Of a stretch of DNA of 64,000 nucleotides, positions 1-64,000 are shown in pieces. This stretch comes from Tubulanus polymorphus (lineage: Eukaryota; Animalia; Nemertea): NCBI RefSeq assembly GCF_964204645.1, contig NC_134028.1, positions 10,168,001-10,232,000 of the forward strand, read 5' to 3'. A model generated the notes under the pieces. It did no database searches. It worked only from the letters and a program-made list of their open reading frames with translations, and was not told where the DNA came from. Both the position numbers and the translations under genes were made by a program. The first letter of the stretch is position 1. Every line of letters starts with the position of its first letter.

Positions 1-7
1 TATGCAT

Positions 8-229
8 TTATATGGGAGGAATATATTTTTGTTTTTCCAAATAATCAATAGTTAAATTAGATAAAGTAACTGCTAACGTTAATTTTAAAATATCATTTAT
101 ATCAAATCTATCAACATTAACACTTCCCATTTTGAATACTTTTTTTAATACCATTGAATAACCAACAGTTCCAACTGATAGTAATGCTCCATTATATAAT
201 CCAGTTATTATCCACTTATTATCACTCAT
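8..229 (-). CDS. small hydrophobic Polinton protein (73 aa)
   Basis: Almost identical to 54837-55058; two hydrophobic segments; starts at TAAATG. Confidence 0.75.
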   Translation of the reverse strand: MSDNKWIITGLYNGALLSVGTVGYSMVLKKVFKMGSVNVDRFDINDILKLTLAVTLSNLTIDYLEKQKYIPPI

Positions 230-232
230 TTA

Positions 233-586: not shown

Positions 587-602
587 TTATATAGTGAAAA
601 AA

Positions 603-1361: not shown

Positions 1362-1429
1362 TATTTATAACATAAAAAAATTACCAATCATCACTAAAAA
1401 TTAATTTTAATAAAATTTTTCCTAAATCA

Positions 1430-2744: not shown

Positions 2745-5700
2745 TAACCATAAGGTAATGTTTTTATACCATCATCTGAAATATGCCTTTTATCATCAAA
2801 TGGATTTAAACTAGTTTTTTCAACTTCATTAATGTACATCTCGTGATCTTCTGATCTTAAACAATTCATTTTATGTTTCATTACAATTGAGTTATATAAA
2901 CACTTTATATAATCTTGAAATTCTATATGTTTATCAACCACATGTTTTGTTATTCCTTTTAACTTTTTAGCTTCATGATCTTTTGTTCTGTAACTATACA
3001 TTTTACTTCTTATCCCAACAAATTCAATCATTTCATCGCCCCCTAAATCATCTTTAAACTTACCAGGAATCTTTTTATTATCATTGCTAAATAGTTCATG
3101 ATCTTTGGGATAATTGCTAAAATCAAAATGATGTTTTAATGTTTTTAAGTCTTTTGTTATATCATTTGTCTTGATTTTTAGTATGTAGGCGTCGGTATTT
3201 TTTTGGATTAATGGGAACCCAGAATTGAATGTTCCATCATCTGTTGATAAATCATAAACATAGTCAGTTGGGTTATATATTTCAAATAAATCTTTAACTT
3301 CTTCTGTTAACTCATTTTCTACATGTCTTAAATTAAAGCAATTTGGTTTAGATTTAATCAATCCAATATTCATATTAAATCCTAATGAACTGCATAATAT
3401 ATTCAATCCTGATATAGCAACTTTTCCTTTTTGAGCTAAAGATATTGTTTTGAAACTTTTTGAACCATCTGCTGCATAGAATCCAATGAAGAACCATTTT
3501 CTTAAATTATTTTTTGCATTTAATACATAATCTGGAACTATCTTTTCTTTAGTTGAAGTATTACTTTTCACTATTGCATGAATATAGAATTCATCATTAT
3601 ATTTTGTAGCAAAATCTTTAGGATTATTTACAAATATTCTATAAACCGCGGATGATTTCATATGATCCATGATTCTAAATGTTTTATGTGAATAAACTTC
3701 TTCGGAGAATTTCTTTATTCTTTCTAATAATTTCAAATCTTGATTGCATAAATACCAACGATAGTGCGTGCGATTAACATAATTATACACGCCTGCTAAA
3801 CCATCACCCATGAAAAATCCTTTGATAAAATATTCTTTTTCTTCTAATGTTTCGGGTTCTATATTATAAATATTATCAATTATTTCATCAAATGACATAT
3901 GATTCATTCTTTGGAAAAATCTTTTATGTAATAATTCATGTCCAATTTTTATATCAGTTGGTTTTATTTCATCACCATTTCGTTTAATTAAACTATGATC
4001 TTCTGTAACATCTACAAATCCTAATTTAGTTCTAACTCTATAGATTTTCTTATTTGTTTTATGCCTAATAATATTCTTTAATTTTTTCCATCCATTTCTT
4101 GTCCAAACATCCATTGAACCATTTATTTGTATTAATTCTTTTTCTCCATATGAAATATAACATTCATTTTGTTTTGGAATTATTTCTGAAATTCTTCCTA
4201 TCAATATTTTATTATTACATTTTAATAATATTGGGGTGTCAGCTGTTACAGAATCAAAATATAATATTTCAATATGCTTTTCCCCAAAAAGTGGTTGTAA
4301 AACATTATAATAAAAATCATACATTAATAATTTTGATACTTCTAAAACAGTTGAACCAATAAATATAGGTTTATTAAATTTCATTGATGTTCTTTTTAAT
4401 TTAACTGCTGTTAAATAATCTTCAAATCTTTTATTTCCTAAATGTCTAGGACTTGATTGTAGGTGTCTTAATCTTTCAGAATTATTTACTAATTCAATAT
4501 CATTTCTATTTCTAATATTTTCACATGTTTTACCATAAAAACTATTGTTCATTAATTTAAAAAAATCTTTTTCGAAATCTGTTTTTGATATGGTTCTCTG
4601 TTGAGTATTGAAATCTATATATTTTTCTAACCACTTCGATTGATTAAATTCAATATATCTATGTACTTTCTTTAATTTCATTCCTTGTTTTAGATAAAAT
4701 TTTAACATTCTATAATGAACAATATAATTGTATTTATTATTTTGAGTAAGTATTAATTTTTCTGTAAAAACATGATCTTTCGGTTTTATTTTCTTCTGGT
4801 ATTCACTTAAATAACTATCATCTACAGTTAAATGTTCTGGGCAATAAGGTAAGTTTCTTGTTTTAAACTTTATATTTTCAGGATATTCTAAATCAACTAC
4901 AAAGAAATAACCAATTGGTGCTTCATCTTCTAAACTCATAATTGCGCTTTCCCAATTAGTTTTATCATCACTTTCAACTTCTGTTAATATAAAATTTTCG
5001 TATGGTTGAGGTTGCATCATTGCCCAACCATATAAATTATTGGCGTCAATATATAATAATTTATATTCATCATTTGCTTTAAAATATCTATCTTCCATAA
5101 CACCACTAATTCCACCTCTAATTGATTTTTCAAATAATAAAACCATATCTGGTTCTTTTAATAAATCTAATTCTACATTTGTATATTTTAAACCACATTG
5201 CCAGGTTAAACCAGGACTAGAGTAGCAATAACAAGGATCAACATTAAAATGATTCAAATTAACTTCTCTAAATTTTTCAAATATGTCCGCCAATATCATA
5301 ACATCTGATTTTAAATATAAATCAACTAATTCACCACGATTTTTCATCTTAAAATGGTTCCAAATATTTAATCTTCTATTAAACACTTCGTATTTCACAT
5401 ACTCCTCTTTTAATTGATCATAAAATTGATCTTTTAATAATTCTGTTACATTAAAATCATTGTGTGTTTTATAAAATGAATAAGGAATTGCGCCTTTATA
5501 TCTCAATAATTTAAAATCTTGTTCATTTGGATAATAATATCGAGTTATACCAAAATCATTATCATCTAAACTTTTTGATAAATTATCTAATGAACTTGCT
5601 AGAAATCTATAAGAATCTAAAAATCTAATGCAACCAAATTGAAATGAAATATAATTTTCAGATGTTTTAGCTAATAGTTTAAAATCATATTTTCTTACAT

Positions 5701-7792
5701 TTACACCATTCATAGCATTATATTCTTCTATTTCTTAATTAATTGCACCCAATTTTCCCGATAATTGTTTTATAAATAGATGGGTATCATAGCCTGATAA
5801 ATTATGAAATAATATTGGTACGAAATTAACTGTCTTAGCTTGTAAATTAAAATCTTCATGAGCAGCTCCACGATATTTTGAATTTAAATGATCATGATCT
5901 CTAACTTTTTTATCAAATGGATAAAAACGTTTTTCACAATAACAACAATGAGTTGCATAATTAAAATCAATTTCATCTTCTTTTGTCATAACTATTCTTT
6001 TATTTTTGTTTAATAATTTTGCAAAATCACTTTTTAATTCAATAATTTTATCACAAAAATCATTAACTACATTTTCACCTCTAAAAAAATATATTGACTT
6101 TCATATAATTCAGGATAATTTGATTTTATATAAATTCCATAAGCAGCAGCTCTTTGATGAACTTTTTAAATTGTATTTATAATTGGTGGGTCTTTTGTTG
6201 TGTCTTCATTTAATTCATTTCCTTTATCCATTGATTTTAATAATTGCTTTTTGTTATATATTTCTTTTCTATCTTGATCAGTTAATTCTTTATTCAACGA
6301 TTCGAAATCCCCATAAATTACAAATGGAACAATATTCTTAAATTTATGATTAGTAAATTTCAATTTATAATCTTTTTCTGTTGGCATTATTAATTTACAA
6401 AAATCTTTATTATCACATAATTCTTTATGTTTTAATAATGTATTCTCAGTCATAAATTTAGATAAACATTTTCAACATAGATTAATTTTACGATGATGAT
6501 CACTTTCTGTTCTAAAGAATAAATCAATTTGTTTTAACCACATATAATGTTCATTTTCATCTTTTTTTATAATATAACAAATCTATAGCATTTTCATCAT
6601 CATAATATTCTGTTAAATATAAAGCTTCCAATGTATAATCTTTAATATTTTCACCTTTTGTCTTTGGTAATTGCATTAATTCAAATACATTTATTTTTAA
6701 ATTATTAACTTTTTCTATTTTAGGAATAATTTTTATAGTTACTGGATATTGATCAATTTTATATAATGTTTCATATTTCCGATAATCTGTTATTCTACAA
6801 ACATTTTCCTGTGTTGGATGTAAGCAACTAATAATTGACCATAGAAAACATTTATTATCTTCATTTTGAATATTTATTACTGCTTTTGTTGTAAATGGTA
6901 ATTTAATATAAGATGATGCTTTAATATCTTTTTCTGTTGTAAAGTTTGAATTATCTTTAAACATTTTATTGCTTTTTGATGTTTTATTCCTTTTTGTATT
7001 ATAAACATTTAAATCTAAATATATAATTTCGTTCAATGTTAAGTCAGAACCCTCAAAATACCTTTCTTCAATATGACGTTTAAATTCATTAAATATTTTT
7101 TCTAACTTCTCTTTTATTTGTGTTTTTGAAATTATTTCTTCAGAGTGTGTTTGGATATTATAATTCATTTTTTCTTCTGACTTTATAAAACTTACTTTCC
7201 CAGAGATACTAATTTTTGGATATTCAACATCTGTTATCAAATCTAATATTTTTTCTATTATTTCATTAAATGTACTATAATCTTCTATTGTTGTACCTTT
7301 AAAAAATCTAAATATAATAGCTGCAGGACCAATTTTACTATGTAATGTTTCTAAAATTTCAATTGTATCTTTTATTAGTGAATCAATATAATTTCTAACA
7401 TTTTCCATGTAAGATTTATTTGAAATGGATTTAGTTTTTGAAGTTGGTTTTTTTACTTTTTGAGGTTTATCGTCAAAATAATCTTTTCCTAAAACATTAT
7501 TACTCAAATTTTGATGGTGTTTTTGTGATTCGAGATGTCTATTATAATTCCTTTTTACTATAAATTCATTACAAACTTCACATTTTATTTCATCCACATT
7601 CATATTTTCTAATCTTTCTTTTCTTTCATTGGAATTTTCTGGAGTTTCAAAATCTATTACATTTTTTATATGATTTGCAGTTTTTTCGTGTCGTGTTTTA
7701 TGAGATGTATCGACGTATTTTTTACAATATTTGCAATAATATTGATTTTTATTAACATTATTATTTTCTGGCTGGTGTTCATTCTCCCCCAT
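2741..7792 (-). pseudogene. polB: protein-primed family B DNA polymerase (pPolB) with intein; 5' part broken by stops/frameshifts
   Basis: Fragments at 6557-7792, 6166-6453, 5735-5989 and 2741-5713. Exonuclease motifs FVIYGDFES, FHNLSGYD, YLKSDV; polymerase motifs YIDANNLYGWAM, KLMNNSFYGK, YFD/TD. Confidence 0.93.
3197..4252 (-). other. intein with LAGLIDADG homing endonuclease in pPolB motif C (352 aa), copy A
   Basis: YFD|SVTADTPILL (block A, Ser1); VTEDHSL (block B TxxH); FIKGFFMGDG and FFIGFYAADG (endonuclease blocks); YVYDLST (block F); LIQKN|T (terminal Asn, +1 Thr). 1056 bp, in frame. Confidence 0.93.
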
Positions 7793-8224
7793 TTATTAGG
7801 GGAAAAAATTAATTGTGGTGATGAGTGGTGTCTCGCCCTCTCGCCCTCTGATCTGAAACCCACATCTTCCAATTACTCACGAGGAAAAAGTTTTTCTGGT
7901 CATTCCACCTGATGATGGCTGTTAGTCAACTAACCTGGTTAGTCAACTAACCAGGAGACTTTTTCCCTGGCGCCAACCGTAGCATTTTCATTCCACGGGA
8001 CTACATATTGCAGTACGTCACAGTGAGCAACCGAAAATAGTACATAATTACCAATTATAATCTTCTTTAGTAAAAAAGTTAAATATATGACTTACTGAAA
8101 CCTACATATTTGGTGAATATCTCAAGCGTGGTATTACTATTACTCGATAGATGGCAGCACATGCAGAAAATTAGAGTAGGCCTAGTAAGAAACGGAAGTT
8201 GACTCGAGGTTCCTGGTGTAGAAA

Positions 8225-46316: not shown

Positions 46317-47241
46317 TTATCAATACAAACAGCGCATTGTGCTGCATTGATAATTTACATTTTTCCGTCTTTTTTAATCTCCGTAACACCTTTTCACGGT
46401 CAACATAGTCTGCTCTATATCGTTGTTTTCCACGTTTGGAGTCGATATCTTTTCTTTTTGATCTATGTATTCGATTTTCTATATTTCTATATCAATCATT
46501 CAGACATTCGAATATTTTAATGACTGACCTGTTGTTGCGGAATACATGTATATCCATTTCCCAGTAAGCATTTTGCGTCGGGCCTACGTTGGCATTTAGT
46601 CGGTCAGTGAGTCGGCCCTAAGTCGTACTTGGCGCAGGGCGACGGACCTTTTGCTCATCCGAATATTGGCGGACCGATGTCATCTGCTGAACTTCAGCCG
46701 TCAGTTATCCGACTAAAACCTTACCTTCATTAATATTGTGCCTACTTCCCGCTGACTATTATCCAACTATGGTCCGACTGTAATCCGACTTCATTTCGAC
46801 CTGAATCCAAATTACTCACTCAGCAAGAACGTGTCAAGTATTGCAAATGTCAAATTTATTTTACACAACAAAGTGAATGAAAATCATATAAAAATATACA
46901 ATATTGTGAAAAAATATTCTATGTTGAGAAAAAAATAAACAATGTCGTGAAAAAAATATACAATATGTCGTGAAAAAAATGTACAAAAGTTTAATAGCCG
47001 GTAAAAATCTTTTGAAAAAAGGAATCATCGCTTGATCCACAGAGAAAAAATCGATTGTACACATCCTAATTTCTGTACAACGACAGACTTCTAGTCCTAT
47101 AAATCTGCAGCAGAATTGGTTTATACCTGAGTAAAAAAAACTTAAGCTATTAAAATTGCATTCAACTTTGACACCAGTAATTGTAAAAGTGGGGTTTCAG
47201 ATCAGAGGTCGAGAGGTCGAGACACCACTCATCACCACAAG

Positions 47242-47263
47242 TAATTTTTTTTCCTTATAAATG
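47242..47263 (+). promoter_or_regulatory. recurrent intergenic motif TAATTTTTT-Nx-TAAATG (example instance), poxvirus-late-promoter-like
   Basis: TAAATG overlaps the ATG at 47261, 54480, 54837, 55083, 55525, 55976, 57382, 58862, 60139, 61268, 62161, 62699 and 53607 (minus strand). Most are preceded by AATTTTTT. Confidence 0.7.
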
Positions 47264-50200
47264 GGGGAGAATGAACACCAACCAGAAAATAATAATGTTA
47301 ATAAAAATCAATATTATTGTCAATATTGTAAAAAATACATCGATAAATCCCAAAAATCACGGCATGAAAAATCTGCAAATCATATAAAAAATGTAATAGA
47401 TTTTGAAACTCCAGAAAATTCCAATGAAAGAAAAGAACGATTAGAAAATATGAATGTGGATGAAATAAAATGTGAAGTTTGTAATGAATTTATAATAAAA
47501 AGGAATTATAATAGACATCTCGAATCACAAAAACATTATAAAAATTTAAATAAAAATGTTTTAGGATCAGAATATTTTGATAATAAACCTCAACAAGTAA
47601 AAAAATCACCTTCAAAAACTAAATCCATTTCAAATAAACCTTACATGGAAAATGTTAGAAATTATATTGATTCACTAGAAATAAAAGATACAATTGAAAT
47701 TTTAGAAACATTACATAGTAAAATTGGTCCTGCAGCTATTATATTTAGATTTTTTAAAGGTACAACAATAGAAGATTATAGTAAATTTAATGAAATAATA
47801 GAAAAAATACTAGATTTGATAACAGATGTTGAATATCTAAAAATTAGTATCTCTGGGAAAGTAAGTTTTATAAAGTCAGAAGAAAAGATGAATTATAATA
47901 TTCAAACACTCTCTGAAGAAATAATTTCAAAAACACAAATAAAAGAGAAGTTAGAAAAAAAATTAAATGAATTTAAACGTCATATTGAAGAAAGATATTT
48001 TGAGGGTTCTGGCTTAACATTGAATGAAATAATATATCTAGATTTAAATGTTTATAATACAAAAAGAAATAAAACATCAAAAAGTAATAAAATGTTTAAA
48101 AATGATTCAAACTTTACAACAGAAAAGGATATTAAAGCATCATCTTATATTAAATTACCATTTATTACAAAAGCAGTAATAAATATTCAAAATGAAGATA
48201 ATAAATGTTTTCTATGGTCAATTATGAGTTGCTTACATCCATCACAGGAAAATGTTTGTAGAATAACAGATTATCGGAAATATGAAACATTATATAAAAT
48301 TGATCAATATCCAGTAACTATAAAAATGATTCCTAAAATAGAAAAAGTTAATAATTTAAAAATAAATGTATTCGAATTAATGCAATTACCACAGACAAAA
48401 GGTGAAAATATTAAAGATTATACATTGGAAGCTTTATATTTTACAGAATATTATGATGATGCAAATGTTATAGATTTGTTATATTACAAAAAAGATGAAA
48501 ATGAACATTATATGTGGTTAAAACAAATTGATTTATTCTTTAGAACAACAGAAAGTGATCATCATCGTAAAATTTATCTATGTAGAAAATGTTTATCTAA
48601 ATTTATGACTGAGAATGCGTTACTAAAACATAAAGAATTATGTGATAATAAAGATTTTTGTAAATTAATAATGCCAACAGAAAAAGATTATAAATTGAAA
48701 TTTACTAATCATAAATTTAAGAATATTGTTCCATTTGTAATTTATGGGGATTTTGAATCATTGAATAAAGAATTAACTAATCAAGATAGAAAAGAAATAT
48801 ATAACAAAAAACAATTATTAAAATCAATGGATAAAGGAAATGAATTAAATGAAGACACAATACAAGACCATTATGCATACAATTAAAAAAGTTCATCAAA
48901 GAGCTGCTGCTTACGGAATTTATATAAAATCAAATTATCCTGAATTATATGAAAGTCAATATATTTCTTTTAGAGGTGAAAATGTAGTTAATGATTTTTG
49001 TGATAAAATGATTGAATTAGAAAGTGATTTTGCAAAATTATTAAACAATAATAAAAGAATAGTTATGACAAAAGTAGATGAAATTGATTTTAATTATGCA
49101 ACTCATTGTTGTTATTGTGAAAAAAATTTTTATTCATTTGATAAAAGAGTTAGAGATCATGATCATTTGAATTCAAAATATCGTGGAGCTGCTCATGAAG
49201 ATTGCAATTTACAAGCTAAAAAAGTAAATTTCGTGCCAATATTATTTCATAATTTATCAGGATATGATACCCATCTATTTATAAAACAATTATCGGGAAA
49301 ATTGGGCGCAATTAATCAAGAAATAGAAGAATATAATGCTATGAATGAAGCAAATGTAAGAAAATATGATTTTAAACTATTAGCTAAAACATCTGAAAAT
49401 CATATTTCATTTCAATTTGGTTGCATTAGATTTTTAGATTCTTATAGATTTCTAGCAAGTTCATTAGATAATTTATCAAAAAGTTTAGTTGATAATGATT
49501 TTGTTATAACTCGATATTATTATCCAAATGAACAAGATTTTAAATTATTGAGATATAAAGGCGCAATTCCTTATTCATTTTATAAAACACACAATGATTT
49601 TAATGTAACAGAATTATTAAAAGATCAATTTTATGATCAATTAAAAGAGGAGTATGTGAAAGACGAAGTTTTTAATAGAACATTAAATATTTGGAACCAT
49701 TTTAAGATGAAAAATCATGGCGAACTAGTTGATTTATATTTAAAATCAGATGTTATGATATTGGCTGACATATTTGAAAAATTTAGAGAAGTTAATTTGA
49801 ATCATTTTAATGTTGATCCTTGTTATTGCTACTCTAGTCCTGGTTTAACCTGGCAATGTGGTTTAAAATATACAAATGTAGAATTAGATTTATTAAAAGA
49901 ACCAGATATGGTTTTATTATTTGAAAAATCAATTAGAGGTGGAATTAGTGGTGTTATGGGAGATAGATATTTTAAAGCAAATGATGAATATAAATTATTA
50001 TATATTGACGCCAATAATTTATATGGTTGGGCAATGATGCAACCTCAACCATATAAAAATTTTATATTAACAGAAGTTGAAAATGGTGATAAAACTGATT
50101 GGGAAAGCGCAATTACGAGTTTAAAAGATGAAGCACCAATTGGTTATTTCTTTGTAGTTGATTTAGAATATCCTGAAAATATAAAGTTTAAAACAAGAAA

Positions 50201-52314
50201 CTTACCTTATTGCCCAGAACATTTAACTGTAGATGATAGTTATTTAACTGAATACCAGAAGAAAATAAAACCGAAAGATCATGTTTTTACAGAAAAATTA
50301 ATACTTACTCAAAATAATAAATACAATTATATTGTTCATTATAGAATGTTAAAATTTTATCTAAAACAAGGAATGAAATTAAAGAAAGTAAATAGATATA
50401 TTGAATTTAATCAATCGAAGTGGTTAGAAAAATATATAGATTTCAATACTCAACAGAGAACCATATCAAAAACAGATTTTGAAAAAGATTTCTTCAAATT
50501 AATGAATAATAGTTTTTATGGTAAAACATGCGAAAATATTAGAAATAGAAATGATATTGAATTAGTAAATAATTCTGAAAGATTAAGACACCTACAATCA
50601 AGTCCTAGACATTTAGGAAATAAAAGATTTGAAGATTATTTAACAGCAGTTAAATTAAAAAGAACATCAATGAAATTTAATAAACCTATATTTATTGGTT
50701 CGACTGTTTTAGAAGTATCAAAATTATTAATGTATGATTTTTATTATAATGTTTTACAACCACTTTTTGGGGAAAAGCATATTGAAATATTATATTTTGA
50801 TATTGTAACAGCTGACACCCCAATATTATTAAAATGTAATGATAAAATATTGATAAGAAGAATTTCAGAAATAATTCTAAAACAAAATGAATATTATATT
50901 TCATATGGAGAAAAAGAATTAATACAAATAAATGGTTTAATGGATGTTTGGACAAGAAATGGATGGAAAAAATTAAAGAATATTATTAGGCATAAAACAA
51001 ATAAGAAAATCTATAGAGTTAGAACTAGATTAGGATTTGTAGATGTTACAGAAGATCATAGTTTAATTAAACGAAATGGTGATGAAATAAAACCGACTGA
51101 TATAAAAATTGGAGATGAATTATTACCTAAAAGATTTTTCCAAAGAATGAATCATATGTCATTTGATGAAATTATTGATAATATTTATGATATAGAACCC
51201 GAAACATTAGAAGAAAAAGAATATTTTATCAAAGGATTTTTCATGGGTGATGGTTCAGCAGGTGTGTATAATTATGTTAATCGCACTCAATATCGTTGGT
51301 ATTTATGCAATCAAGATTTGAAATTATTAGAAAGAATAAAGAAATTCTGCGAAGAAGTTTATTCATATAAAACATTTAGAATCATGGATCATATGAAATC
51401 ATCGGCGGTTTATAGAATACTTGTAAATAATCCTAAAGATTTTGCTACAAAATATAATGATGAATTCTATATTCATGCAATAGTGAAAAGTAATACTTCA
51501 ACAAAAGAAAAGATAGTTCCAGATTATGTATTGAATGCAAAAAATAATTTAAGAAAGTGGTTCTTCATTGGATTCTATGCCGCAGATGGTTCAAAAAGTT
51601 TCAAAACAATATCTTTAGCTAAAAAAGGAAAAGTTGCTATATCAGGATTGAATATATTATGCAGTTCATTAGGATTTAATATGAATATAGAATTAATTAA
51701 ATCTAAACCAAATTGTTTTAATTTAAGGCATGTAGAAAAAGAATTTACAGAAGAAGTTAAAGATTTATTTGAAATATATAACCCAACTGACTATGTTTAT
51801 GATTTATCAACAGATGATGGAACATTCAATTCTGGGTTCCCATTAATCCAAAAAAATACCGACAGTTACATACTAAAAATCAAGACAAATGACATAACAA
51901 AAGACTTAAAAACATTAAAACATTATTTTGATTTTAGCAATTATCCCAAAGATCATGAACTATTTAGTAATGATGATAAAAAGATTCCTGGTAAATTTAA
52001 AGATGAATTAGGGGATGATGAAATGATTGAATTTGTTGGGATAAGAAGTAAAATGTATAGTTACAGAACAAAAGATCATGAAGCTAAAAAGTTAAAAGGA
52101 ATAACAAAACATGTGGTTGATAAACATATAGAATTTCAAGATTATATAAAGTGTTTATATAAATCAATTGTAATGAAACACAAAATGAATTGTTTTAAGA
52201 TCAGAAGATCATGAGATGTACATTAATGAAGTTGAAAAAACTAGTTTAAATCCATTTGATGATAAAAGGCATATTTTAGATGATGGTATAAAAACATTAC
52301 CTTATGGTTATTAA
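47261..52314 (+). pseudogene. polB: pPolB with N-terminal Zn fingers, OTU-like protease, HNH/EndoVII insertion and intein; frameshifts near 48860 and 52195
   Basis: ORFs 47261-48886 and 48849-52214 plus a tail to TAA at 52312-52314; all exonuclease and polymerase motifs present; DNKCFLW..EHY; CCYC..RDHDHL..YRGAAHEDCN. Confidence 0.93.
50802..51857 (+). other. intein with LAGLIDADG endonuclease in pPolB motif C, copy B (residue 1 is Ile, not Ser)
   Basis: YFD|IVTADTP ... LIQKN|TDSY; 1056 bp, in frame; same blocks as copy A. Confidence 0.92.
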
Positions 52315-53607
52315 AATGGATCTATATCATCAAACTCGAAATCACTATTGGCTTCTTCATTTTCATTTAATTGTTCAGGTTCTTCTTCCATTCCATTTTT
52401 TCCATCTTGTTCCACATTTCATCTCGCTCTCTTTGTTTCTTTTTGTTTGTTAATTCATCAAATGGAATAATAATATCTATGTTTAAATAATTTACAATCT
52501 TATTTAAAAAGAATTCATAATTTATTGAATCTGTTATTCTATTTTCCAAATGATATATTAATATTTGTTTAAATATTTTTTTTATATTTTCCATATCTTC
52601 TTCTGTTAATTTAGGTTTTTCATAATAATCGTTAAATAATAAATATAAATACATTTTCTTTTGTTTTGTGTTAAATGTTGATGGAATAATTGTTTTTATA
52701 ATATCTTTTTTAATTATTTCACCATTTTCATTTTCTATTATTTTCATTTTTTAAGCCATTGCATATATTCTGGTGTATGATCTTCTATAGAAAATATTTT
52801 AAAAATTTCATCAAGATAATTTAATTTTGGATCTATGAGAAAATTTTTAGTTTTTTCTTCACCCCATAAATTCTTTTGCCATCCACGATCAACACAAGAT
52901 AACACAGTACCTTCTTGCCTTAAGGTCGCATAAATACATTGTGGGCATTTTTGTTTATAATTTATTGGTAATAGATCTTCATTAAGCTCTTGGTATTTTC
53001 TTACGTTTTCTTTATGTTTTATTGTTCTATTATGTAGATTTGAATTACTTGCTGTAATAATCAATTTACAATATTTACAATAATATGTTTTTCTTGTTAA
53101 ATCATTATATTGTTTTTCTAACTTTTCAACTGTTTCTTCATTATCTGGTAACGTTTTCTCATATTTTATTTTTTCTAATAAATTATTTTTTCTTTCATTA
53201 AATTCAGTTTCAAATTTATTATAAATTTCATCTATATGTACTTTACGAAATTGATGATTCTCCCAATCTTCTATATTTTCAGGGCTATATTTTATTCGAC
53301 AAGGCTCGCAGGAATGATCTTTTATATTATCCTTATCATAGAATAAGAAAGGTCTTTTCCAAATAACTTCAGGTTCAACTTCAGCAGAATTACTATTACT
53401 TTCATTACTATCAACATTAGCCGTTGCACCATTAATTCTACACTTCTCTGAATGTTTTTTAACATAATTTCTTGAGAATAATTTATTACATTTTGGACAG
53501 TTTATTTTAGGGGGTTTATAATTTTCATCATGTTTTTTCATATGTCGAGCCATATTACTTTTTCTTAGAAGTTCACCACAAATTTCGCATGCTATCTTCT
53601 CGTCCAT
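52311..53607 (-). pseudogene. C2H2 zinc-finger plus VLTF3-like protein, frameshifted
   Basis: CEIC..HMKKH, CPKC..H, YCKYCK..H fingers; ORFs 52744-53607 and 52367-52747; C-terminal INYEFFLNKI..DEMWNK. Confidence 0.7.
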
Positions 53608-53674
53608 TTATTTAGGAAAATTTTATTAAAATTAATTTTTAGTGATGAGCGGTAATTTTTTTATGTTATAAATA

Positions 53675-54463
53675 ATGGTATAATTAAAAGAACACAGAAT
53701 ATTTGTTGATTCTAGAAAACTTACAAATTATAAATCACATAATTTACTAGTACAATTAGATAGAGAATTTAAGAATTGTGTTGATTTAAAATTAGTTAAT
53801 ATAAGTTTATGTAACTCATTTTACAATATACCAGATAAAACTTATGAACATAGAAGTTTTTTTATTCTTGATAAACGTAGTAATAATAATTTTCAACTTA
53901 TGATTACACCAGGATTATATAATTTAGAAACATTAGCGCAAGAAATTAATAGAAAAGCTCGGATTATGTTAGGTAGTGATTCTAAATCTAATATTAAATT
54001 CATAAAAAGTGAGAGCTCTAATAAAATTAAAGTAAAGTTTGATGATGAAAATATTAGTCCTGATTCATTTATGTTAAGAAGACATGCTTACGCGGTAAAA
54101 AAACCTTTTGCTAAACTGTTAGGAATTCCTCCAGATAAACTTATTGTTGGAAACATATACGGTATATCAAACTTAATACCTTTTACACATTTTTATATTT
54201 ATTGCAATTTAATTAACCCAACAAAAACATTTGAAGCAACTAAAGATACAATTTGTAATTCTAGTATATTAAATATTTTACCATTAAAAAATGTCAAACA
54301 ATTTGGAACTCAAATAAATTATAATTTAACTGAATGTGATTTCAAACCTTGTATTCCACATTTCAATAATTTTAAATTAGAAATAAGAAATCATAATGGT
54401 TATTTAATTGATTTGAATAACTTTCCTGTAATTTATGAATTAGTTATAAGATGTAAAGAGTAA
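53675..54463 (+). pseudogene. penton/minor capsid protein; nonsense codon at codon 3
   Basis: ATG GTA TAA here versus ATG GTA GAA in copy A; the rest is open and homologous to 603-1361. Confidence 0.72.
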
Positions 54464-54479
54464 TTTTTTCACTATATAA

Positions 54480-54833
54480 ATGAATATAACTGTTGGACCG
54501 AGTATATGTTTTGGGTTTGATTTTAAACGTGAGAAAGAAATGAAATTTAACATTAATGATGTAATTACACAAATCAAAAATATTGCATTTTCTAATGAAA
54601 CAACATTTAAGTATGAAAAAACAATAGATAAAGAAACTTTAAATGTAGAAAAGATTACTAATTTAATTAGAGAATCTTTAAGATTTTATGAATTAGATGA
54701 AGATTTTATCATAGATGATATCAAAAAAATAATAATTGAAATATATACAAATGAAACTAGTAATAAAATAAATGTTGAATTAATCATCACTAAGATAACT
54801 AAATATTTTGAAGATAGTAATTTTTTTGATTAA
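54480..54833 (+). CDS. Polinton hypothetical protein (117 aa)
   Basis: Conserved with 233-586. Confidence 0.75.
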   Translation: MNITVGPSICFGFDFKREKEMKFNINDVITQIKNIAFSNETTFKYEKTIDKETLNVEKITNLIRESLRFYELDEDFIIDDIKKIIIEIYTNETSNKINVELIITKITKYFEDSNFFD

Positions 54834-54836
54834 TAA

Positions 54837-55058
54837 ATGAGTGATAATAAGTGGATAATAACTGGATTATATAATGGCGCCCTACTATCAGTTGGAATTG
54901 TTGGTTATTCAATGGTATTAAAAAAAGTATTCAAAATGGGAAGTGTTAATGTTGATAGATTTGATATAAATGATATCTTAAAATTAACATTAGCAGTTAC
55001 TTTATCTAATCTAACAATTGATTATTTAGAAAAACAAAAATATATTCCTCCCATATAA
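54837..55058 (+). CDS. small hydrophobic Polinton protein (73 aa)
   Basis: Conserved with 8-229. Confidence 0.75.
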   Translation: MSDNKWIITGLYNGALLSVGIVGYSMVLKKVFKMGSVNVDRFDINDILKLTLAVTLSNLTIDYLEKQKYIPPI

Positions 55059-55082
55059 TTACATAATTTTTTTACTAAATAA

Positions 55083-55505
55083 ATGGCTTCTGCAATTATA
55101 ACTATTATAGGATCGGCAATTGTTAACGCTTTGGCATTTACTGGTGGTGGATATTTATTTAAACATATTGATAAAAATAGTTCATTAGGAGAACAAAGAA
55201 GACATAACTTAGCATTAGAGAAATACAATAAAGCAGCAGAAGAATATAGAGAAAAGAGGCAAAACTATATGGATTATATTAACAAGGAATTATATGATCA
55301 GAAGATTTCACATAGAGATTTTCAATCAGTTGATGATGCAATGAGTTTATATAACGCAGTAACAAATAAAGAAAAATTACATCTATACAAACCTAAATTA
55401 TCAGATTATTATACCCCAAGTAAAGAACAACAGAAATATGAAATAATATGGATTTTAGGTGGAACTGTTATTGTTATATTTGTAGCATATAAATTTACTA
55501 ATTAG
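55083..55505 (+). CDS. Polinton membrane protein (140 aa)
   Basis: Gly/Ala-rich hydrophobic N-terminus, central coiled coil, C-terminal TM segment; TAAATG start. Confidence 0.7.
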   Translation: MASAIITIIGSAIVNALAFTGGGYLFKHIDKNSSLGEQRRHNLALEKYNKAAEEYREKRQNYMDYINKELYDQKISHRDFQSVDDAMSLYNAVTNKEKLHLYKPKLSDYYTPSKEQQKYEIIWILGGTVIVIFVAYKFTN

Positions 55506-55524
55506 TAATTTTTTTTCTAAATAA

Positions 55525-55959
55525 ATGGAAAATAAAGTTGATAGTATTGATATCATTCCTCATGATATAAATAAAACTAAATTAAAAATATATTTAGAAA
55601 AACAAATATTAGAATTTGAAAGTGACTTAAAGATAAAAAAGAAAAAATATTTAAAATGTAAAATTATATATTATTTGATTATTAGTGGTTCGGTTACAAT
55701 TAGTTCTGTAATAACATTTCTAGCAATATTCAGTCCATTAACACCTTTAGCTATATCAATTGGTGTATTAGGATTAAGTTCAAGTGTATTAACCGGCATA
55801 AGTTCAAAATTAAATATAAAAAGTAATAAAGAAAAAATGAAAACTAATATAAAAGAAATTAATAAATTAAAGAACACACTAGATTATATCATGAGTTTAA
55901 ATGGTCATATAACAGTTGAAGAACAAGATAAATTATTAAAAGAATTAATAAATTATTAA
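55525..55959 (+). CDS. Polinton two-TM coiled-coil protein (144 aa)
   Basis: Hydrophobic hairpin flanked by Lys-rich helices; TAAATG start. Confidence 0.7.
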   Translation: MENKVDSIDIIPHDINKTKLKIYLEKQILEFESDLKIKKKKYLKCKIIYYLIISGSVTISSVITFLAIFSPLTPLAISIGVLGLSSSVLTGISSKLNIKSNKEKMKTNIKEINKLKNTLDYIMSLNGHITVEEQDKLLKELINY

Positions 55960-55975
55960 TTTTTTAATTATATAA

Positions 55976-57365
55976 ATGGTAGATAGTTTTCCAAAAGCCT
56001 TCCAATATAATAAATCAATTAAATATAATATTCCAGCAATAGATTTTAATAAAGATATTACATATAGAAATGAAATTTTAGATTCATTAACTAATTTAGA
56101 AATTTATGTTACTGAAACTAATAATTTTAATGCAAAGATGGAAAATATATTTCATGTATATTTAATTGATTTTAAAAAATTGAAAGATGAAAAACAATGG
56201 TTATTAAAATCTAATATGAAGTATTGGCAGAACCAATTAAATTTTGCTGTTTATTGTGCAACAACAGGATGTGGAATTAGTTGGAATGATCATTTGAATA
56301 ATTCTAAATATAAATTAATTCAAAGTTTATTTAGATTTCATACATACTTTCAAATCAGAATAATATTTAATGAATTAGAGTGCGCTTTACCAGGATCAAG
56401 ATATTTTTAAAGAATTAGATAATAATACTAATTTATCAAAGTTTTATAAAATTTGTAATGAATTTAATATAGATATAAATAATTCTGATTTTAGAACAAA
56501 AAATGGAACAATAAGATCCCTTCCTTGCCCTAAAAAGATTGCAGAATATTGTGCACTTCCCATACCATCTAATAGCTTTTATAATATCTATAATAATAAA
56601 TTAGGTTATGGTAAAATAGAAACTAAGGATTTAGAAACATTAAATTTCAATAAATTACCGAAATTTTATGATAATTTAAAACAAGAAAACAATAATGGTT
56701 GGGTTTATTTCATTTTAGAAAACAGTGAAGGTTTTACAAAATCAGGTATACAAAGAATAAATCAATCTATTAGAACTTATTTGATATGTATTCTAGGTGC
56801 ACAAGTTGAAACAAGATCCCCAATAATTGGAAATTTAAATACATCATTTGATACACAGAAACAATTTAAAGTTTTATTTGACGATTCAATTCATAATGAT
56901 AAAAATAGATCGATTCCAGAAAACATTATAAGATATCAAAATTATTTAGATAAATCTCATGTAAGGCTTAATTATTGTATAGGCCCTAATCTATTTATTA
57001 TTTCTAATGATTTAGTATTAAAGATGGGAAACATAATTGGTTATAATAATCTAATTAAAACTGCAACAATAAATAATTCATTTGGATTGAATGATATAAA
57101 TAAAAAGATTATTACTGCTCCAAAATTAATGGAAGGTGAAAAAAATAAAAAACACATTCAATCAACAGAAACTAAAACTAAGAATATTAAATTAAATAAT
57201 GATTCTAAAATAAAAGATTATAATACATCAGAAAATAATAGAACTGATATTATTCAACATGATATAATTAAAACTGATAATGATAATAAATCCCATGAAA
57301 ATACTAAATTAGCTATAACTTGTATAGGAATTGTAATCGGAGGAATATTATATTTTAAATTTTAA
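55976..57365 (+). pseudogene. Polinton protein of unknown function with C-terminal TM, frameshifted near 56405
   Basis: ORFs 55976-56410 (WQNQLNFAVYCATTGCG) and 56781-57365 appear to be one gene; intergenic motifs bound both ends. Confidence 0.6.
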
Positions 57366-57381
57366 TTTTTTTATTATATAA

Positions 57382-58811
57382 ATGGATGTAGAAGGTGGAG
57401 AAGATATTGGAATGGATCCTTTTGATGAACCTGGTATAACTGATGAACAACTACTGATTTTGATGAAACAAGTTTAAATGATGGTAATGAGCCAGAATAT
57501 AATAATAATTTGAATATGCCTGATTATATTAAAAATGCAGAATCACAATTAAATCCTGAAAATTTAGACCCAGATTTAGTAAAACAAGATTTCGATAATT
57601 TAAACAAAATACCTAAATTAGAAGATTTAATTGAAAAATCTAAACTTAACATAAATGATGAAGACGTTGGACTTTTAGCAGATCAATTAAAATTTTTAGA
57701 TAATGGTAAATGTTATTATCGTTTGAAAGGTGATTATTATATTGATATCACTTATAAAAATAATAAAAACAAAATATTATCAGAATCAACTTTAGAAAAA
57801 TTAAAACCAGATAGAATTAAAATAATAAGTAATAGTAATGAAATAACTGATGTTACACAAAAAGAAATAGATGATAATATAGACGTATTTAAACAAAGAA
57901 TTAATGAATTATTTGAAATAATCAAAAAGAAATCAGAAACAGAAACAACATCTGAACAGAATATAACTTCCAAAACTAGTAAACTTAAATCAAATAAAGT
58001 TTCAATTGAAAAACTTTTACCGAATGGATTAATTGATGCAACAGATCAACAATTAGAAGATTTAAATATATTTTCTGATGAAGCAATTAGAGAAATTATT
58101 AGTATAAGAAATGAAGCTGATAAAATTGCACATAATAAAAGTATAAGAGATCAAAAATTATGTATTTGGAAAAAGAATTAACTAATGCAAATAAAGAAAT
58201 AGAACAAATAAAGTCTGATTTAGATCATCAAGTAATTGATGAAATAGAATATAGGCAAAAAGAATTACGTTTAGAAAAAGAAATTAATAATTTAAAAGAT
58301 AATTTAGAAGTACAAAAAGAAGAAATTAAATTATTATCAAAATCATATGATTATAATATAAATAGATTAAAAGTTATTTTTAAAGATTTATTCTGAAATA
58401 TCACTGAAAGATAGAATAAAGTTATTATTCAAATTAGAAGGAATAACAATTCTTTCAATTCTAACAGCTGTAACTATGTTATGTACAACAATTGGTTTAG
58501 CAATATCAAATGCTTTGAAATCTACTCCTACTCCCAATAAACCGGATAAACCCCCGAATGATAATAATTCTATACAAGATAAAGTTAAAGATGGTTTAAA
58601 GAAATTAGCAAAATATTTATGGGAACTATCTAAAAAATCTGCTGCAGCTTTACCAGGAATTATTGCATCAATTGTTGGTTTTATATTGAAATCTGCTGGG
58701 AATATTCTTAACTTTGCTGCTGAACATATTATTTTATTTTTAATTACAGTTGTAAGTGCTATTATCTTTGGGTTAGTAAATATGATATCAAAAAATATCA
58801 AGAAAAAATAA
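57382..58811 (+). pseudogene. acidic/coiled-coil protein with C-terminal hydrophobic segments, frameshifted
   Basis: TAAATG at 57382; fragments 57510-58181, 58160-58396 and 58476-58811. Confidence 0.6.
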
Positions 58812-58861
58812 TAAAAAATAAACATGATAAAAAATAAATAATTAATTTTTTTGTTAAATAA

Positions 58862-60108
58862 ATGAGTGGGAGTTATATAAGTCCTTCTAAGATTTCTAGA
58901 ATACTAATGCTATTAAAGCAGAAAGATCACATCATATAATTACTCATAATCCTTCAAATATTAATCCTGATGAAACTTTATATGTTAGAATTCCTAGATT
59001 AACACAAAATACTTTTTATGTTCCAAATAGTATTTATTTATCAGCCGATATAAAAGTAAATGGTCATGATAACAATTATGTTGTTGATAATGTTGGAAGA
59101 TATTTGATTAAAAAATTAACTATAAAGATTGGTCCAGAAACAGTTTTCTCATTAGATGATTATAATTTATTTATGCATTATAAAGATTTATGGTTAACTA
59201 AAGAAAATAGAAATAATATGATATTTCAGGGTATTCAATCGAAAAACCATAATAAATTAAGATCAGGAGCTTATGACGCAATAGTAACTCGTGCCACAGA
59301 TAATTTGATTAAAAAGATTTATGGAAGCAAATATAAAATTCCATTAGACTATGAATTGATAAATAATAATGCACCTTTATATAAATACGCAATTCAAGAA
59401 GATATTATATTTGAGATAACATTTGCTCCTGTAAATGAAATTGTATTATCTAGCGTTGTTAAAGATATGGGTTATAAATTATCGAATATATGTTTAGAAT
59501 ATAACACAGTAACTAATGAAAATATTGCTAGCACAATTCAAACTCAATACAATCAAGGATTTTCATTATTATATGATTATATTGATAAATTTAAAACCGT
59601 AACTATTAATGCAAATGATGAAATAATTAATGAGAATATTAACTTCCCAAGAAGATCTATTAAAGGTATATTAATATTTTTTACCATTGCAACATATTCT
59701 AATGGTGCAATAAAGGTAGATAATTATTATAATCCTGAAATAACAAAAGTTGAAATAACTATCGAAGGAATAGCAAATAAAATATTTTGTCAAGGAATGA
59801 GAATGATTGATCAATGGCCAGAAATTAGAAAACATTTTATGAATGAAAAAGTAAAATCATTTGAAAATTGTAATATTAATCAAATTGATTATTATACCGC
59901 TAATAAATATGCATTATGGTTAGATTTTAGAACAACAGAGGATAATTCATTACATGGTTCTGGGAAGAAATTACAGAACACTAAAGATGGAATACAATTA
60001 TTCATGAAAAAGAAAAAAGGAGACAAAAATTTCAAAATGCACATTTATATTATATCTGACGCGCAATTAAATATTGTAAATTCACAATTAGATAGTATTC
60101 AATATTAG
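58862..60108 (+). pseudogene. major capsid protein (double jelly-roll, hexon-like); frameshift near the 5' end
   Basis: HNPSNINPDETLYVRIP..VDNVGRYLIKKL; NENINFPRRSIKGIL; YALWLDFRT..DNSLHGSG; position next to integrase and ATPase. Confidence 0.75.
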
Positions 60109-60138
60109 AAATATAAAGTTAAAATTAAGGATATATAA

Positions 60139-61267
60139 ATGGGTGGTAAAAAAACTCCTAATACTAAAGAACAATATTTAAGAAATTTATATTACAACCC
60201 TGAGAGTTCAGTTGCTTATTCTTCTACTAAAAATATATGGCGTCAAGTAAAACAAGATAAATTAGATAAGATAATCCCACAAAATTTAGTTAAATATAAA
60301 GATATAAATGAATTTATGTTAGAACAACCAACATATACAACACATAAAAAATTGTTAGAAAATATAAAACTCGTAAAACTATGATAAGTTATGTAAATCA
60401 ACAGTGGCAAGGAGATTTAATTGATATGAAAAATGTTAAGAAAGATAATGATGATTATTGGTGGTTATTGAATATAATTGATATTTTTAGTCGTTATGTA
60501 TGGAGCTTCCCACTTTATAGAAAAGATGCTGTACAAACATCAAATGTTTTAAGAAAATTTCTTTCGGATGATAAACTAAAACCAGAAAAAAAAACAATTT
60601 GATGATGGAAAAGAGTTTGATAATTCACTTGTTCATGAACTCTCAGATAATCATAATATTAATTATTTTTCAACAAAATCGGATAAAAAAGCAGCAGTTG
60701 TTGAACGATTTAATAGAACATTAAGAACAAGAATGTGGAAATATTTTACAGCAAATAATACTTTTAAATGGATTGATGTTTTGCCAAAATTGATAGAAGG
60801 ATATAATAATTCTTATAATTCTTCTATTGGAATGAAACCTATTGATGCTAGAAAACCTGAAAATGCTGAAATTGTTTGGAATAATTTATATGGAGCATTT
60901 CTTGTAGATGATTTTGGTGAACCTAAATTTAAAAGTTGGTCAAAATGATAGAATTTCTAAGTATAAAAAGATATTTGATAAAGGATACGATCGAAATTTT
61001 ACTAGAGAAATATATAAAATAAAAAAGGTAATAACAACAAAACCATATGTCTATAAATTAGAAGATTTAGATGGTGAAGAAGTTGATGGCTACTTTTACG
61101 AAGAAGAATTAAGTTTAACTACTGAAAATCTAGAACAAGAATATAAAATTGAAAAAGTATTAAAAACAAAAACTATTAAAAGAAATAAATATTCTTTAGT
61201 AAAATGGGTTGGATGGCCAGATAAATTCAATGAATGGATATTATCAAGTAAAATTAAAAATATATAA
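60139..61267 (+). pseudogene. retroviral-like (rve) integrase with C-terminal chromodomain, frameshifted
   Basis: QWQGDLIDM, IIDIFSRY, DDGKEF, KAAVVERFNRTL, YNNSYNSSIGMKP; YKIEKVL..LVKWVGWPDKFNEWI. Confidence 0.9.
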
Positions 61268-61876
61268 ATGAATAAGGAATTATTCATATTTGAGCCTCAT
61301 AATATGTTAATTTCTGGTGTAACAAATTGTGGAAAAACTTATTTTATATTAAATTTATTAGAAACTGTTTATGAAAACTATTTTGATAATATAGTATTAT
61401 TTTGTCCAACATATGAATTTAATCAAACTTATGATAGAAATATTACTAGAAATAATAAATTTATTATATTAGATCCTAAAACAGTAAAAGAAAATTTAGA
61501 TAATTGTATAAAAAGAGCAATTGATATTTATAAAGGATCAAATACATTATTCATTGTAGATGATTGCGCTAATTTACATGATTCCAAAGTTAGAGAAAGT
61601 GAGTTATGCTATTTAGCTTTCTCTGGGAGACATTTTGGGATAACAACTTGGGTTTTAAATCAAAAATATAATTCAATTGTTAAAGACTTTAGAGAAAACA
61701 TTAGATTTCTAGTTTTATTCTACAATAAAGATAGAAAATCGATGAAAAATGCACTTGAGGAAAATGATATTATTCCACATGATTTACATAATGAATATAT
61801 GGATAATTTGAAAAATATTAAAAGATCAAAATTACTATTTAGATTACAACACCCATTTAAATATGAATTTATATAA
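61268..61876 (+). CDS. A32/FtsK-like DNA packaging ATPase
   Basis: Walker A GVTNCGKT, Walker B LFIVDD, GRHFGI..LNQ; intact 202-aa ORF. Confidence 0.9.
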   Translation: MNKELFIFEPHNMLISGVTNCGKTYFILNLLETVYENYFDNIVLFCPTYEFNQTYDRNITRNNKFIILDPKTVKENLDNCIKRAIDIYKGSNTLFIVDDCANLHDSKVRESELCYLAFSGRHFGITTWVLNQKYNSIVKDFRENIRFLVLFYNKDRKSMKNALEENDIIPHDLHNEYMDNLKNIKRSKLLFRLQHPFKYEFI

Positions 61877-61884
61877 ATTCAATT

Positions 61885-62130
61885 AGTTTGTTAATCTAGT
61901 TGAATTCTAGTTATTGGTATTTGTAACAAAAATCAAATAGATTTAACAATATTTTAACTAGCTTGTTAATCTAGTTTAATTCTAGTTACATTCTAGTTGA
62001 ATTCTAGTTGTTAGTAGTTGAAACAAAAATCAACTAGATTTAACTAGAAATAAACAAAAACAACAATATTTCAACTAGCTTGTTAATCTAGTTGAATTCT
62101 AGTTACATTCTAGTTAAATTCTAGTTGCAA
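61885..62130. repeat. CTAG-rich direct/inverted repeat array in a viral intergenic region
   Basis: Repeated TTAATCTAGTTGAATTCTAGTT and complementary AACTAG units. Confidence 0.75.
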
Positions 62131-62160
62131 CATCACACAATTAATTTTTTTGTTATATAA

Positions 62161-62766
62161 ATGGGAGGTGAAAAGAAAATAAAATCTAAAAATGGTGATG
62201 TTCCAATTGAAAAAACTTTAGATGATTTAGGAATAACTGAAACAAAATTAACTCCAGATGATGGTGCTTTAAATAATGTTACAACAAATAATAATTATGA
62301 ATATTATCTTTATTGTAAACATCAATTAGAAATATTAATAGCATCTGGAAAATGTAAAAATTTTGTCGGTAAAAATTAAACTTATAATGAATTAGATACA
62401 ATGAAATCAGATGAAATTATTAGATTATTTAAGATTTATGAAGCCGCGAGAACAGCTAGAGTTAATGACGCGATATCAGAAAATGTAGTAAAAGGTTATA
62501 GTAAATTATGTAATTATATACTACCAATTGAAGATGAAAATAGATTATATTCCGATTTAAAAAATGATTATTTAGTTATGACTGAATTAAATAAATGGAT
62601 TGGATATTTATCATTTCAATTAGGTGGATTTATGACATTATTATCAACTGGAGTTATAACATTTTCAAATATTGAAAGTAAAAAGATTTCTATAATAAAT
62701 GAGCGAGGTGGAAGAAGTGAAGGAATTAACTGTGAAGAAAAAACCGAGATCACAGAAACAAATTGA
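62161..62766 (+). pseudogene. Polinton hypothetical protein with in-frame stop at 62377
   Basis: 62161-62379 and 62401-62766 are in the same frame; TAAATG start. Confidence 0.6.
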
Positions 62767-63055
62767 ATGGTCTCGGCAATTAGGAATTAAATCACAAGAA
62801 TATAAAAAAGCTGTAAAAGAAAAAATAAGTAATAAAAATGGTGAAAATATTGTTATTTCTACTCCTTCTAATAATAGAATATTTGATAAATGTCTATATT
62901 TTACAGTTGGAGTTGTAATTGTATTCATTTTGATTGGGTGTAATTGGTATAAGAAATCAAATAAAATTCATGATATTAATAATTCTGAAACAACTGCTAT
63001 CAAAAATGAAAATACTTCTGAAATTCCAAAATTTATAATAAAAAAAATGGATTAA
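62699..63055 (+). CDS. Polinton basic protein with TM segment (118 aa)
   Basis: TAAATG start; KKKPRSQKQ basic patch; hydrophobic stretch. Confidence 0.65.
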   Translation: MSEVEEVKELTVKKKPRSQKQIEWSRQLGIKSQEYKKAVKEKISNKNGENIVISTPSNNRIFDKCLYFTVGVVIVFILIGCNWYKKSNKIHDINNSETTAIKNENTSEIPKFIIKKMD

Positions 63056-64000
63056 TATTTTAGAAAAAAAGCAAAAAAAAATAATTTTTTTTAATTAATT
63101 GAATATTAATTGAATATCTCACTACTTTTGTCTATCTATGCGGAGCAATTAAATTGTCCAGATAAGTCATTTCGGATTCTAGATATTCATTATTTTTATT
63201 AATTTATTTTGTTTTTACTTGAATATTGTATTACAGTCGTTTCTTATTATTAGTTTTTTCTTAAATTGAAAGATGGCAGCACTGGGTGTGATGCTAAAAT
63301 GAATATTTGAATTTGAATTTGTTTATCAATTAACATAGTAATTGATTACTAATTTGATTAAAGATTATATCATAATTAAGTTAAAAATCCATAATTCATT
63401 TATCAGTTTTCATTCTTACATTCTTTTCATTCGGAATAATTTATAATTTCAAATTTCACATATTTTTTTAGCACCAACAACACTTTACTTAGGTGTTTTA
63501 GCTAAGTATATAAGGCAATTCATTCGACCACTGGAGTGCCGCCGGGCTTGGTTTGCAGGGGCATTTCGAAAATGCACCTTTGTCCACCCTTCGTGGTTCT
63601 CCTTCAGTTTCGACGTTTCCTGTCAACCATTGAAGGAGAATTGGTGAGGTGTGGGTCACAGGGGTGTAAGTAGAAATGCTTGGGGATAGGTATCTCGATG
63701 CTCCTCTCAATAACGGGATGCTTATCCCCTAAAAACTCTGCGAGTCAAGTCGGGTGGTTTTGCTAAAACTTACCGTAAAAACATTGAAATATTCCTTTTA
63801 ATCACGACAGAATGATGACTATCCTCCTGTCGTCACGGCCGAGCTAATTTAAATAAACCCCGCTTTCAGCAACCAATGAAAACGTGGTGGTTCAATGCCG
63901 GCTAACTGGCTTGTGTGTGTTGTATGTACTGCGTGCTTAATATATAACTGCTAGCTATCCAATATAACAACAACGTTGTGCAACACCTGTTTGATTGATC

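Follow-up and report, generated by a model that had tools for sequence, protein, structure and literature searches.

A homing-endonuclease intein in the protein-primed DNA polymerase of a Polinton, with a likely origin among giant-virus polymerase inteins

In this study, we describe a homing-endonuclease intein in motif C of the protein-primed DNA polymerase of family B (pPolB) of a Polinton, located in a stretch of DNA of 64,000 nucleotides (the window). With good confidence, we read it as a member of a Polinton-borne clade that likely derives from an Imitervirales-type PolB intein and likely homes between Polinton copies. We demonstrate its position, its fold, the clade to which it belongs, the coexistence of filled and empty alleles, and a patchy occupancy on the polymerase tree. 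Judged from sequence comparison, the founding jump likely took place long ago, with a Polinton lineage as its recipient, and did not lead from Mimivirus to the present element.

The intein and its host element

The features concerned, with coordinates in the window, are as follows.

47176..63100, plus strand: Polinton copy A (left end near 47176, right end approximate)
47261..48886, plus strand: N-terminal piece of the polymerase with zinc fingers (same gene, other frame)
48849..52214, plus strand: main piece of the protein-primed family B polymerase (PF03175, E 2.7e-20), containing the intein
50802..51857, plus strand: intein copy A (352 aa, stop-free translation between YFD and TDS)
58900..60108, plus strand: likely major capsid protein, a piece (weak Capsid_N match, E 0.006, below cut-off)
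60139..61267, plus strand: retroviral-type integrase with chromodomain, in four pieces (rve E 1.5e-6, Chromo E 6.8e-5, both below cut-off)
61268..61876, plus strand: A32-like packaging ATPase (Pox_A32, PF04665, E 1.2e-13, above cut-off)
1..7877, minus strand: Polinton copy B, cut by the window start, its polymerase gene also fragmented
3197..4252, minus strand: intein copy B (352 aa, Ser1, YFD/S...KN/TDA, slashes marking the junctions)

The boundaries of copy A are exactly those originally predicted, with no stop in 352 residues and the whole insert lying within the open reading frame 48849-52214; all motifs listed in that prediction are found in it. A HINT splicing domain (approximately residues 1-112 and 311-352) flanks a two-motif LAGLIDADG endonuclease, the motifs GFFMGDG and GFYAADG forming two helices with acidic residues. 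The splicing blocks read VTEDH (block B) and VYDL (block F), with a C-terminal KN followed by Thr. Profile matches lie above cut-off for TIGR01445 intein_Nterm (29.4 vs 24.5 bits) and LAGLIDADG_3 (PF14528; 27.7 vs 22.5), and under it for Intein_splicing (PF14890; 29.9 vs 35.8). An AlphaFold2 model from a 65-row alignment reached a pLDDT of 93.6, and its top Foldseek matches were the TliVMA intein (E 1.4e-16), PI-PkoII (E 5.3e-16) and PhoVMA, the I-DmoI fold also being matched; folding of the single sequence was uninformative (pLDDT 32.8). Both window copies hold the block B Thr and His, the block F Asp, the terminal Asn and the +1 Thr (VTEDH, VYDL, N/T), and H86, D334 and N352 are invariant across 100 aligned rows. 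The insertion point, YFD/TDS, is motif C, the equivalent of pol-c site III (YGD/TDS). Taken together, motifs, profiles and modelled fold confirm 50802-51857 as a LAGLIDADG intein at the YxD/TD (pol-c) site of a Polinton protein-primed PolB.

In standard class 1 chemistry, Ser1, the block-B His and the Asn-Thr residues carry out excision. Residue 1 of copy A is Ile, which is not a nucleophile and leaves the class 1 intein without its required Ser or Cys, so that copy A, having no block-F Cys either, would likely be unable to splice and is likely a decaying copy. Reading the Ile start as that of a class 2 or class 3 intein was ruled out, given the Ser of copy B and the absence of Cys from block F. 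Where Ser1 is present, the class 1 residues are predicted to remove the intein and restore the catalytic DTD motif, splicing being needed because the insert splits that motif. The inteins of copies A and B differ at 19 residues.

The Polinton/Maverick gene set is represented by the protein-primed PolB, the RVE integrase (in pieces) and the A32-like ATPase. No protease gene was matched among the open reading frames scanned in the window; the gene content of group 2 elements has been described as variable. A PDB sequence search with the capsid candidate (58900..60108) gave no match. Copy B is 95% identical to copy A over 7.9 kb, and comparison of the two indicates that the polymerase frame at 48849-52214 is disrupted at its start and close to its end. 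Their similarity begins at 47176, the position at which 495 reads continue into unrelated flanks (agreement 0.36) and at which depth in same-species whole-genome reads rises from approximately 13-28 in the left flank to several hundred inside the element. With this depth and so many unrelated left flanks, the element is a high-copy integrated family. A search for a terminal inverted repeat within the window found no matching right repeat. The element is AT-rich (22-26% GC).

Some further features of the window are recorded here. One gene (53617-54463 vs 603-1419) differs in its middle part between copies that are otherwise 95-97% identical, which suggests a swapped segment. Many genes of the element are preceded, between 47240 and 62168, by a conserved motif (TAATTTTTTT...TAAATG; repeat families D8, D13 and D19) resembling a shared promoter/terminator signal, and short tandem repeats of a CTAGTT unit lie at 61865-62127, between the ATPase and the last genes. 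The host flank (12489-18110, 25106-26986, 31985-32884 and 43974-46316) is dense in other elements, including a Harbinger-type DDE_Tnp_4 with a Myb/SANT gene, a P-element-like transposase and a PF24764 integrase-like gene; some fragments without a Pfam match we take to be BEL/Pao-like. This dense transposon content, together with the type of the element, points to an animal as the likely host.

Filled and empty alleles are both present in raw DNA reads of the same species (run X5). Here, precisely 1056 nt are missing at the intein site from 56 reads (35 starts), the exact empty joint being found in 14 reads at stricter likeness; a further 22 reads skip 1063 nt with 7 other letters in between, and 103 continue beyond the N-junction as non-intein sequence. 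Depth falls from approximately 500 just upstream of the site to 234 at intein base 1. The intein occupies about half of the copies of this Polinton family. Codon 1 of nearly all filled reads differs from copy A, and the Ile start is therefore private to that copy.

Relatives of the intein and the origin of its clade

The best matches of the window intein are inteins of other pPolBs (P0058 at 61%, P0059 at 48%, P0060-P0062 at 45-46%), followed by those of RNA-primed-type PolBs at 33-41% identity; in all, 2090 cluster representatives match at E<=0.001. Phage relatives (2 records, 27% identity) and archaeal ones (11 loci) are both distant, with a mean identity of 26-28% for prokaryote and phage inteins vs 37-44% for viral ones. 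The likeness to the Mimivirus PolB intein, put forward in the original prediction, is borne out by computation: 137 of 366 positions are identical to P0132 (Acanthamoeba castellanii mimivirus PolB), whose intein sits at the equivalent site, YGD/TDS, and likewise ends KN/T. The KN end, taken there as a mark of the Mimivirus type, is not one, since it closes 108 of the 287 family inteins (HN closes 142).

From 329 extracted inteins, the 287 of 300-520 aa were treed and the 42 outside that length left out. IQ-TREE was applied to 67 and then 66 of the 287 rows, the second set being made up without L032, L015 and P0248, which have long branches, and without four near-duplicate rows. The archaeal-type outgroup consisted of GTDB loci and L033 only, a BLAST-based 'archPolB' label having proved unreliable and been merged into the RNA-primed-type class, and 80 metagenome loci (<=41% identity over full length) lay outside the trees. 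Among viral-type exteins, a named family applies to Mimivirus and four GVMAGs only, most others being metagenomic proteins.

Eight Polinton inteins form one clade, with support of 100 (FastTree, 287 rows), 99 (PMSF quick tree) and 100/99 (IQ-TREE, 67 rows); the seven members kept in the 66-row tree are also monophyletic (100/99). Ser1 is found in seven of the eight rows, and both LAGLIDADG motifs are retained in all eight, at approximately 45-67% identity between lineages. With 12 pol-b paralogues as outgroup (66 rows), the clade falls within three viral-type nodes (95/85, 100/97 and 99/97), the Mimivirus intein lying outside the innermost (99/97). The original prediction had counted branching with other Polinton inteins against a jump from a giant virus. 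The nearest relatives are indeed Polinton inteins (46-63% identity), yet their clade nests among giant-virus-type inteins, so the jump is moved back to the ancestor of the clade and not overturned.

A single indel points in the same direction. The spacing from block F to the end is 19 in all eight Polinton inteins and in 17 of 18 members of a viral clade, GFPL, as against 20 in 242 of 250 other viral-type inteins and 21 in 10 of 10 archaeal-type ones; a one-residue shortening occurs in 2 of those 250 rows (with the deletion elsewhere) and in none of the 10. The GFPL group, named from its motif ahead of treeing, came out as a clade in the tree (98/98). Its member L011 corresponds to GVMAG-M-3300020169-51, placed in Imitervirales IM_01, Mesomimiviridae, in the available text of Aylward 2021; of six names sought there, two were absent from the table. 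Through the deletion, the Polinton clade would be tied to viruses among which is a Mesomimiviridae genome. The union of the two is recovered by FastTree (96), whereas IQ-TREE does not recover it and its AU test does not reject it (p=0.43).

Two other accounts of the origin have to be weighed against this. In one, the inteins of Polintons form an ancient lineage sister to those of giant viruses, or served as their donor. With archaeal outgroups a basal placement would be tolerated (p=0.43); there the Polinton clade is nested in the best trees over a poorly resolved backbone, and we would tentatively attribute the value to the long outgroup branch. With pol-b paralogues, by contrast, basal placement is rejected (AU p=0.002, under LG+G4, which rejects true clades more often than a mixture model). 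Further, set against 242 viral and 10 archaeal-type inteins, the short block F-G spacing is a derived state, and viral PolBs of the RNA-primed type harbour a far greater diversity of the family, at several sites and in several genes, than pPolBs do (9 of 287 rows), which makes a sister or donor role decidedly unlikely. The direction from giant virus to Polinton is likely and rests on the paralogue rooting and the one indel, archaeal rooting being undecided. In the other account, this element received the intein recently and directly, with Mimivirus or one of its close relatives as the donor. That would agree with the 37% identity, the same site and the same KN/T end, but it is very improbable: other Polinton inteins are closer (46-63%), the Mimivirus intein ranks 35th of 278 non-Polinton inteins by identity, its sisterhood to the Polinton clade is rejected (AU p=0.007, also under LG+G4), and the GC of the intein (25%) equals that of the extein (24-25%). 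Of the jump originally proposed, the origin in the giant-virus pol-c family is thus retained, and Mimivirus as the donor into this element is given up.

Other members of the family occupy diverse hosts and sites. P0093 (a cluster of 10, with the empty relative P0458) is a Polinton pPolB with a pol-c intein of another type, which ends GIGEIIVHN, has the long spacing and is 52% identical to viral P0101 vs 35-42% to the Polinton clade. Its identity and indel suggest, rather than prove, a second, independent invasion; the AU test does not reject monophyly of all nine pPolB inteins (p=0.24). GFPL-group inteins are carried by the RNA-primed-type PolBs P0072, P0073, P0080 and P0192, with short exteins (~850 aa) very distant from Imitervirales references (~60-125 bits). 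Inteins of the same family also occur in an ADP-ribosylglycohydrolase (P0082; GGD/S...N/TDT) and in type II topoisomerases (P0063, P0176, P0194, P0250, P0276, P0308 and P0310; 8 inteins, one clade), at sites where TD or S mostly comes next, and the family therefore appears to tolerate or reach new sites. In P0066-P0068, P0181, P0223 and P0307, a viral-type PolB intein sits 3 residues downstream of pol-c (after TD, before SN/SC), and P0066-P0068 have both sites filled, in tandem.

Likely homing among Polinton copies

As originally predicted, the extein is a protein-primed Polinton PolB of a lineage other than that of the giant viruses. It matches other pPolBs at 41-58%, and BLAST against Imitervirales and Mimivirus exteins gave no significant match (best E 0.11; Mimivirus E 8). 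The original prediction had also proposed separate intein and extein trees, expecting incongruence. At the scale of giant viruses the two histories do disagree; within the window's polymerase class they broadly agree, the window with P0058 and P0059 with P0060 forming pairs in both trees at divergences of 62% vs 58% and 49% vs 46%. Long co-descent with losses would give the same.

Occupancy of the site is patchy. On a 43-row pPolB tree in which 35 exteins are empty, the 8 that are filled require 7 changes, a clustering no greater than that of shuffled labels. Among 120 listed close pPolBs, 6 were filled, 103 empty and 11 not reached, as scored by a crude classifier with a few mis-calls, and three 90% clusters (P0059, P0061 and P0093) mix filled and empty members. 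The flank of P0059 has its own pattern: compared with the empty relative P0439, 388 of 390 upstream residues are identical, falling to 6/10 and 6/10 around the site, and the downstream 10 residues match another Polinton clade at 9/10, which suggests co-conversion or target escape. Between copies A and B, dN/dS is 0.14 for linker and endonuclease (12 synonymous, 8 non-synonymous), 0.26 for the extein and, taken over the entire intein, 0.32 (neutrality rejected at p=0.002); it is 1.47 for the two halves of the splicing domain (2 synonymous, 12 non-synonymous), and decay is accordingly present. The patchy occupancy, the selection on the endonuclease and the flank of P0059 suggest homing among Polintons.

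Mechanistically, the LAGLIDADG domain is predicted to cleave the vacant site in Polintons of the same nucleus that lack the intein; repair templated on a filled copy would then transfer the intein together with a few flanking codons. Of the steps proposed, the founding jump is held with the least certainty. Compared over 30 nt, the homing sites of viral loci agree with that of the Polinton at only 13-20 positions, and this, with an intein GC equal to that of the extein, argues for a founding jump that was old and probably stepwise or ectopic. It may have gone via a protist element. For the link between archaeal and viral inteins, the available text of Ogata 2005 (PMC549080) argued likewise.

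Several observations concern the sequence at the site itself. Empty motif-C sites read DCD and not DTD in 45 of 104 related pPolBs (P0312-P0429), and near-identical relatives of P0059 differ strongly at the very intein site; both may be cases of endonuclease escape. In filled P0058, the flank (residues 1177-1184) reads IIYGD, as in viral PolBs, vs LLYMD or LLYQD in empty relatives, and may be a relic of the donor flank or chance.

The main competitor to continuing homing is a single ancient acquisition from a giant virus, after which the intein would have been inherited vertically along with the polymerase and lost precisely on repeated occasions. The broad congruence of intein and extein trees within the window's polymerase class, with divergences alike, would fit such a history, as would the roughly 100 of 120 listed close pPolBs that are empty. 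It is nonetheless unlikely. The intein of P0062 belongs to the clade and sits inside a pPolB without significant BLAST match to that of the window (E>=3), a separation that likely corresponds to the Alpha versus Beta divide of Polintons, as given in the available text of Starrett 2021. The identity dip in P0059 is sharp and confined to approximately 20 residues at the site, the endonuclease is under purifying selection with both motifs kept, and filled and empty alleles coexist in one species as well as in the three mixed 90% clusters. That the insert is an assembly chimera or contaminating viral DNA is hardly credible; exact copy A is absent from two raw-read runs (best share of words 0.49), but the window itself holds two independent copies, raw reads from another study span both junctions, filled and empty, and filled pPolBs are found in unrelated assemblies too.

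Relation to known inteins and significance

The closest described counterpart is the PolB intein of APMV R322, whose site is defined as pol-c in the available text of Ogata 2005 (PMC549080). The two have in common the YxD/TD site, their length (351 vs 352 aa), HINT and LAGLIDADG domains, VTEDH, GFFMGDG and KN/T, at 37% identity. In contrast to the APMV intein, that of the window is hosted by a protein-primed Polinton polymerase, with an extein that has no significant similarity to that of APMV, is one residue shorter in block F-G, is not its sister group, and resides in an integrated multicopy element. The GFPL PolB inteins of Imitervirales share the one-residue deletion and the F-N-x-G-x-P-L end with the Polinton clade, and of the 10 inteins outside Polintons that match copy B best, 8 are theirs; they differ in their RNA-primed PF00136 exteins and in an identity of only ~42%, and IQ-TREE neither recovers nor rejects them as the sister group.

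Nuclease domains inside Polinton polymerases have precedent. The available texts of Jeong 2023 and Krupovic 2024 describe Polinton/Maverick pPolBs with HNH or VSR nuclease inserts, which the latter suggests stem from intein invasions. No splicing domain is named for these inserts in those texts, and the word 'intein' does not occur in that of Jeong 2023. Unlike them, the window insert is a complete HINT-LAGLIDADG intein in a catalytic motif and must be excised. Virus-linked inteins have also been described from Anaeramoeba and from the polymerases of giant viruses endogenised in algae (Gallot-Lavallee 2023; PMC10710043). There too, inteins of Nucleocytoviricota type lie in eukaryotic nuclear DNA, with allelic and non-allelic homing proposed, but the hosts are protists and algae and the sites are host genes or giant-virus inserts; the main text mentions none of Polinton, Maverick, metazoa or animal. 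Eukaryotic-virus inteins have been catalogued in NCLDV families and unclassified viruses, and metazoan genomes have been described as being without inteins (Green 2018). None of the full texts searched describes a Polinton polymerase that carries an intein; supplements, Repbase and subscription journals could list some. What we report is a known intein family in a new class of host.

A likely animal genome thus carries a full intein, with a conserved endonuclease, in about half of a high-copy Polinton family, and related inteins sit in several other Polinton lineages. Homing can take place only where a cell contains both donor and target DNA, which makes the intein a marker of contact between giant viruses and Polinton-class viruses, as well as between Polinton lineages. 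This bears on whether Polintons spread in viral form and encounter giant viruses in the way that virophages do. With filled and empty alleles in a single genome, the homing cycle can be tested from existing long reads. Naive annotation would also miss polymerases that carry such an insert.

A wider reading is put forward tentatively, and taken as a whole we rate it at somewhat under an even chance: that this is an active homing intein lineage in animal germ lines, given to Polintons by giant viruses at least twice, with P0093 as the second case, which moves between polymerases of unrelated classes and fuels an arms race at the active site, with empty copies diversifying their homing site. If true, the intein would record at the molecular level that Polintoviricetes and Imitervirales shared cells in which both replicated, and it would act as a natural gene drive whose targets are the transposon copies of an animal.
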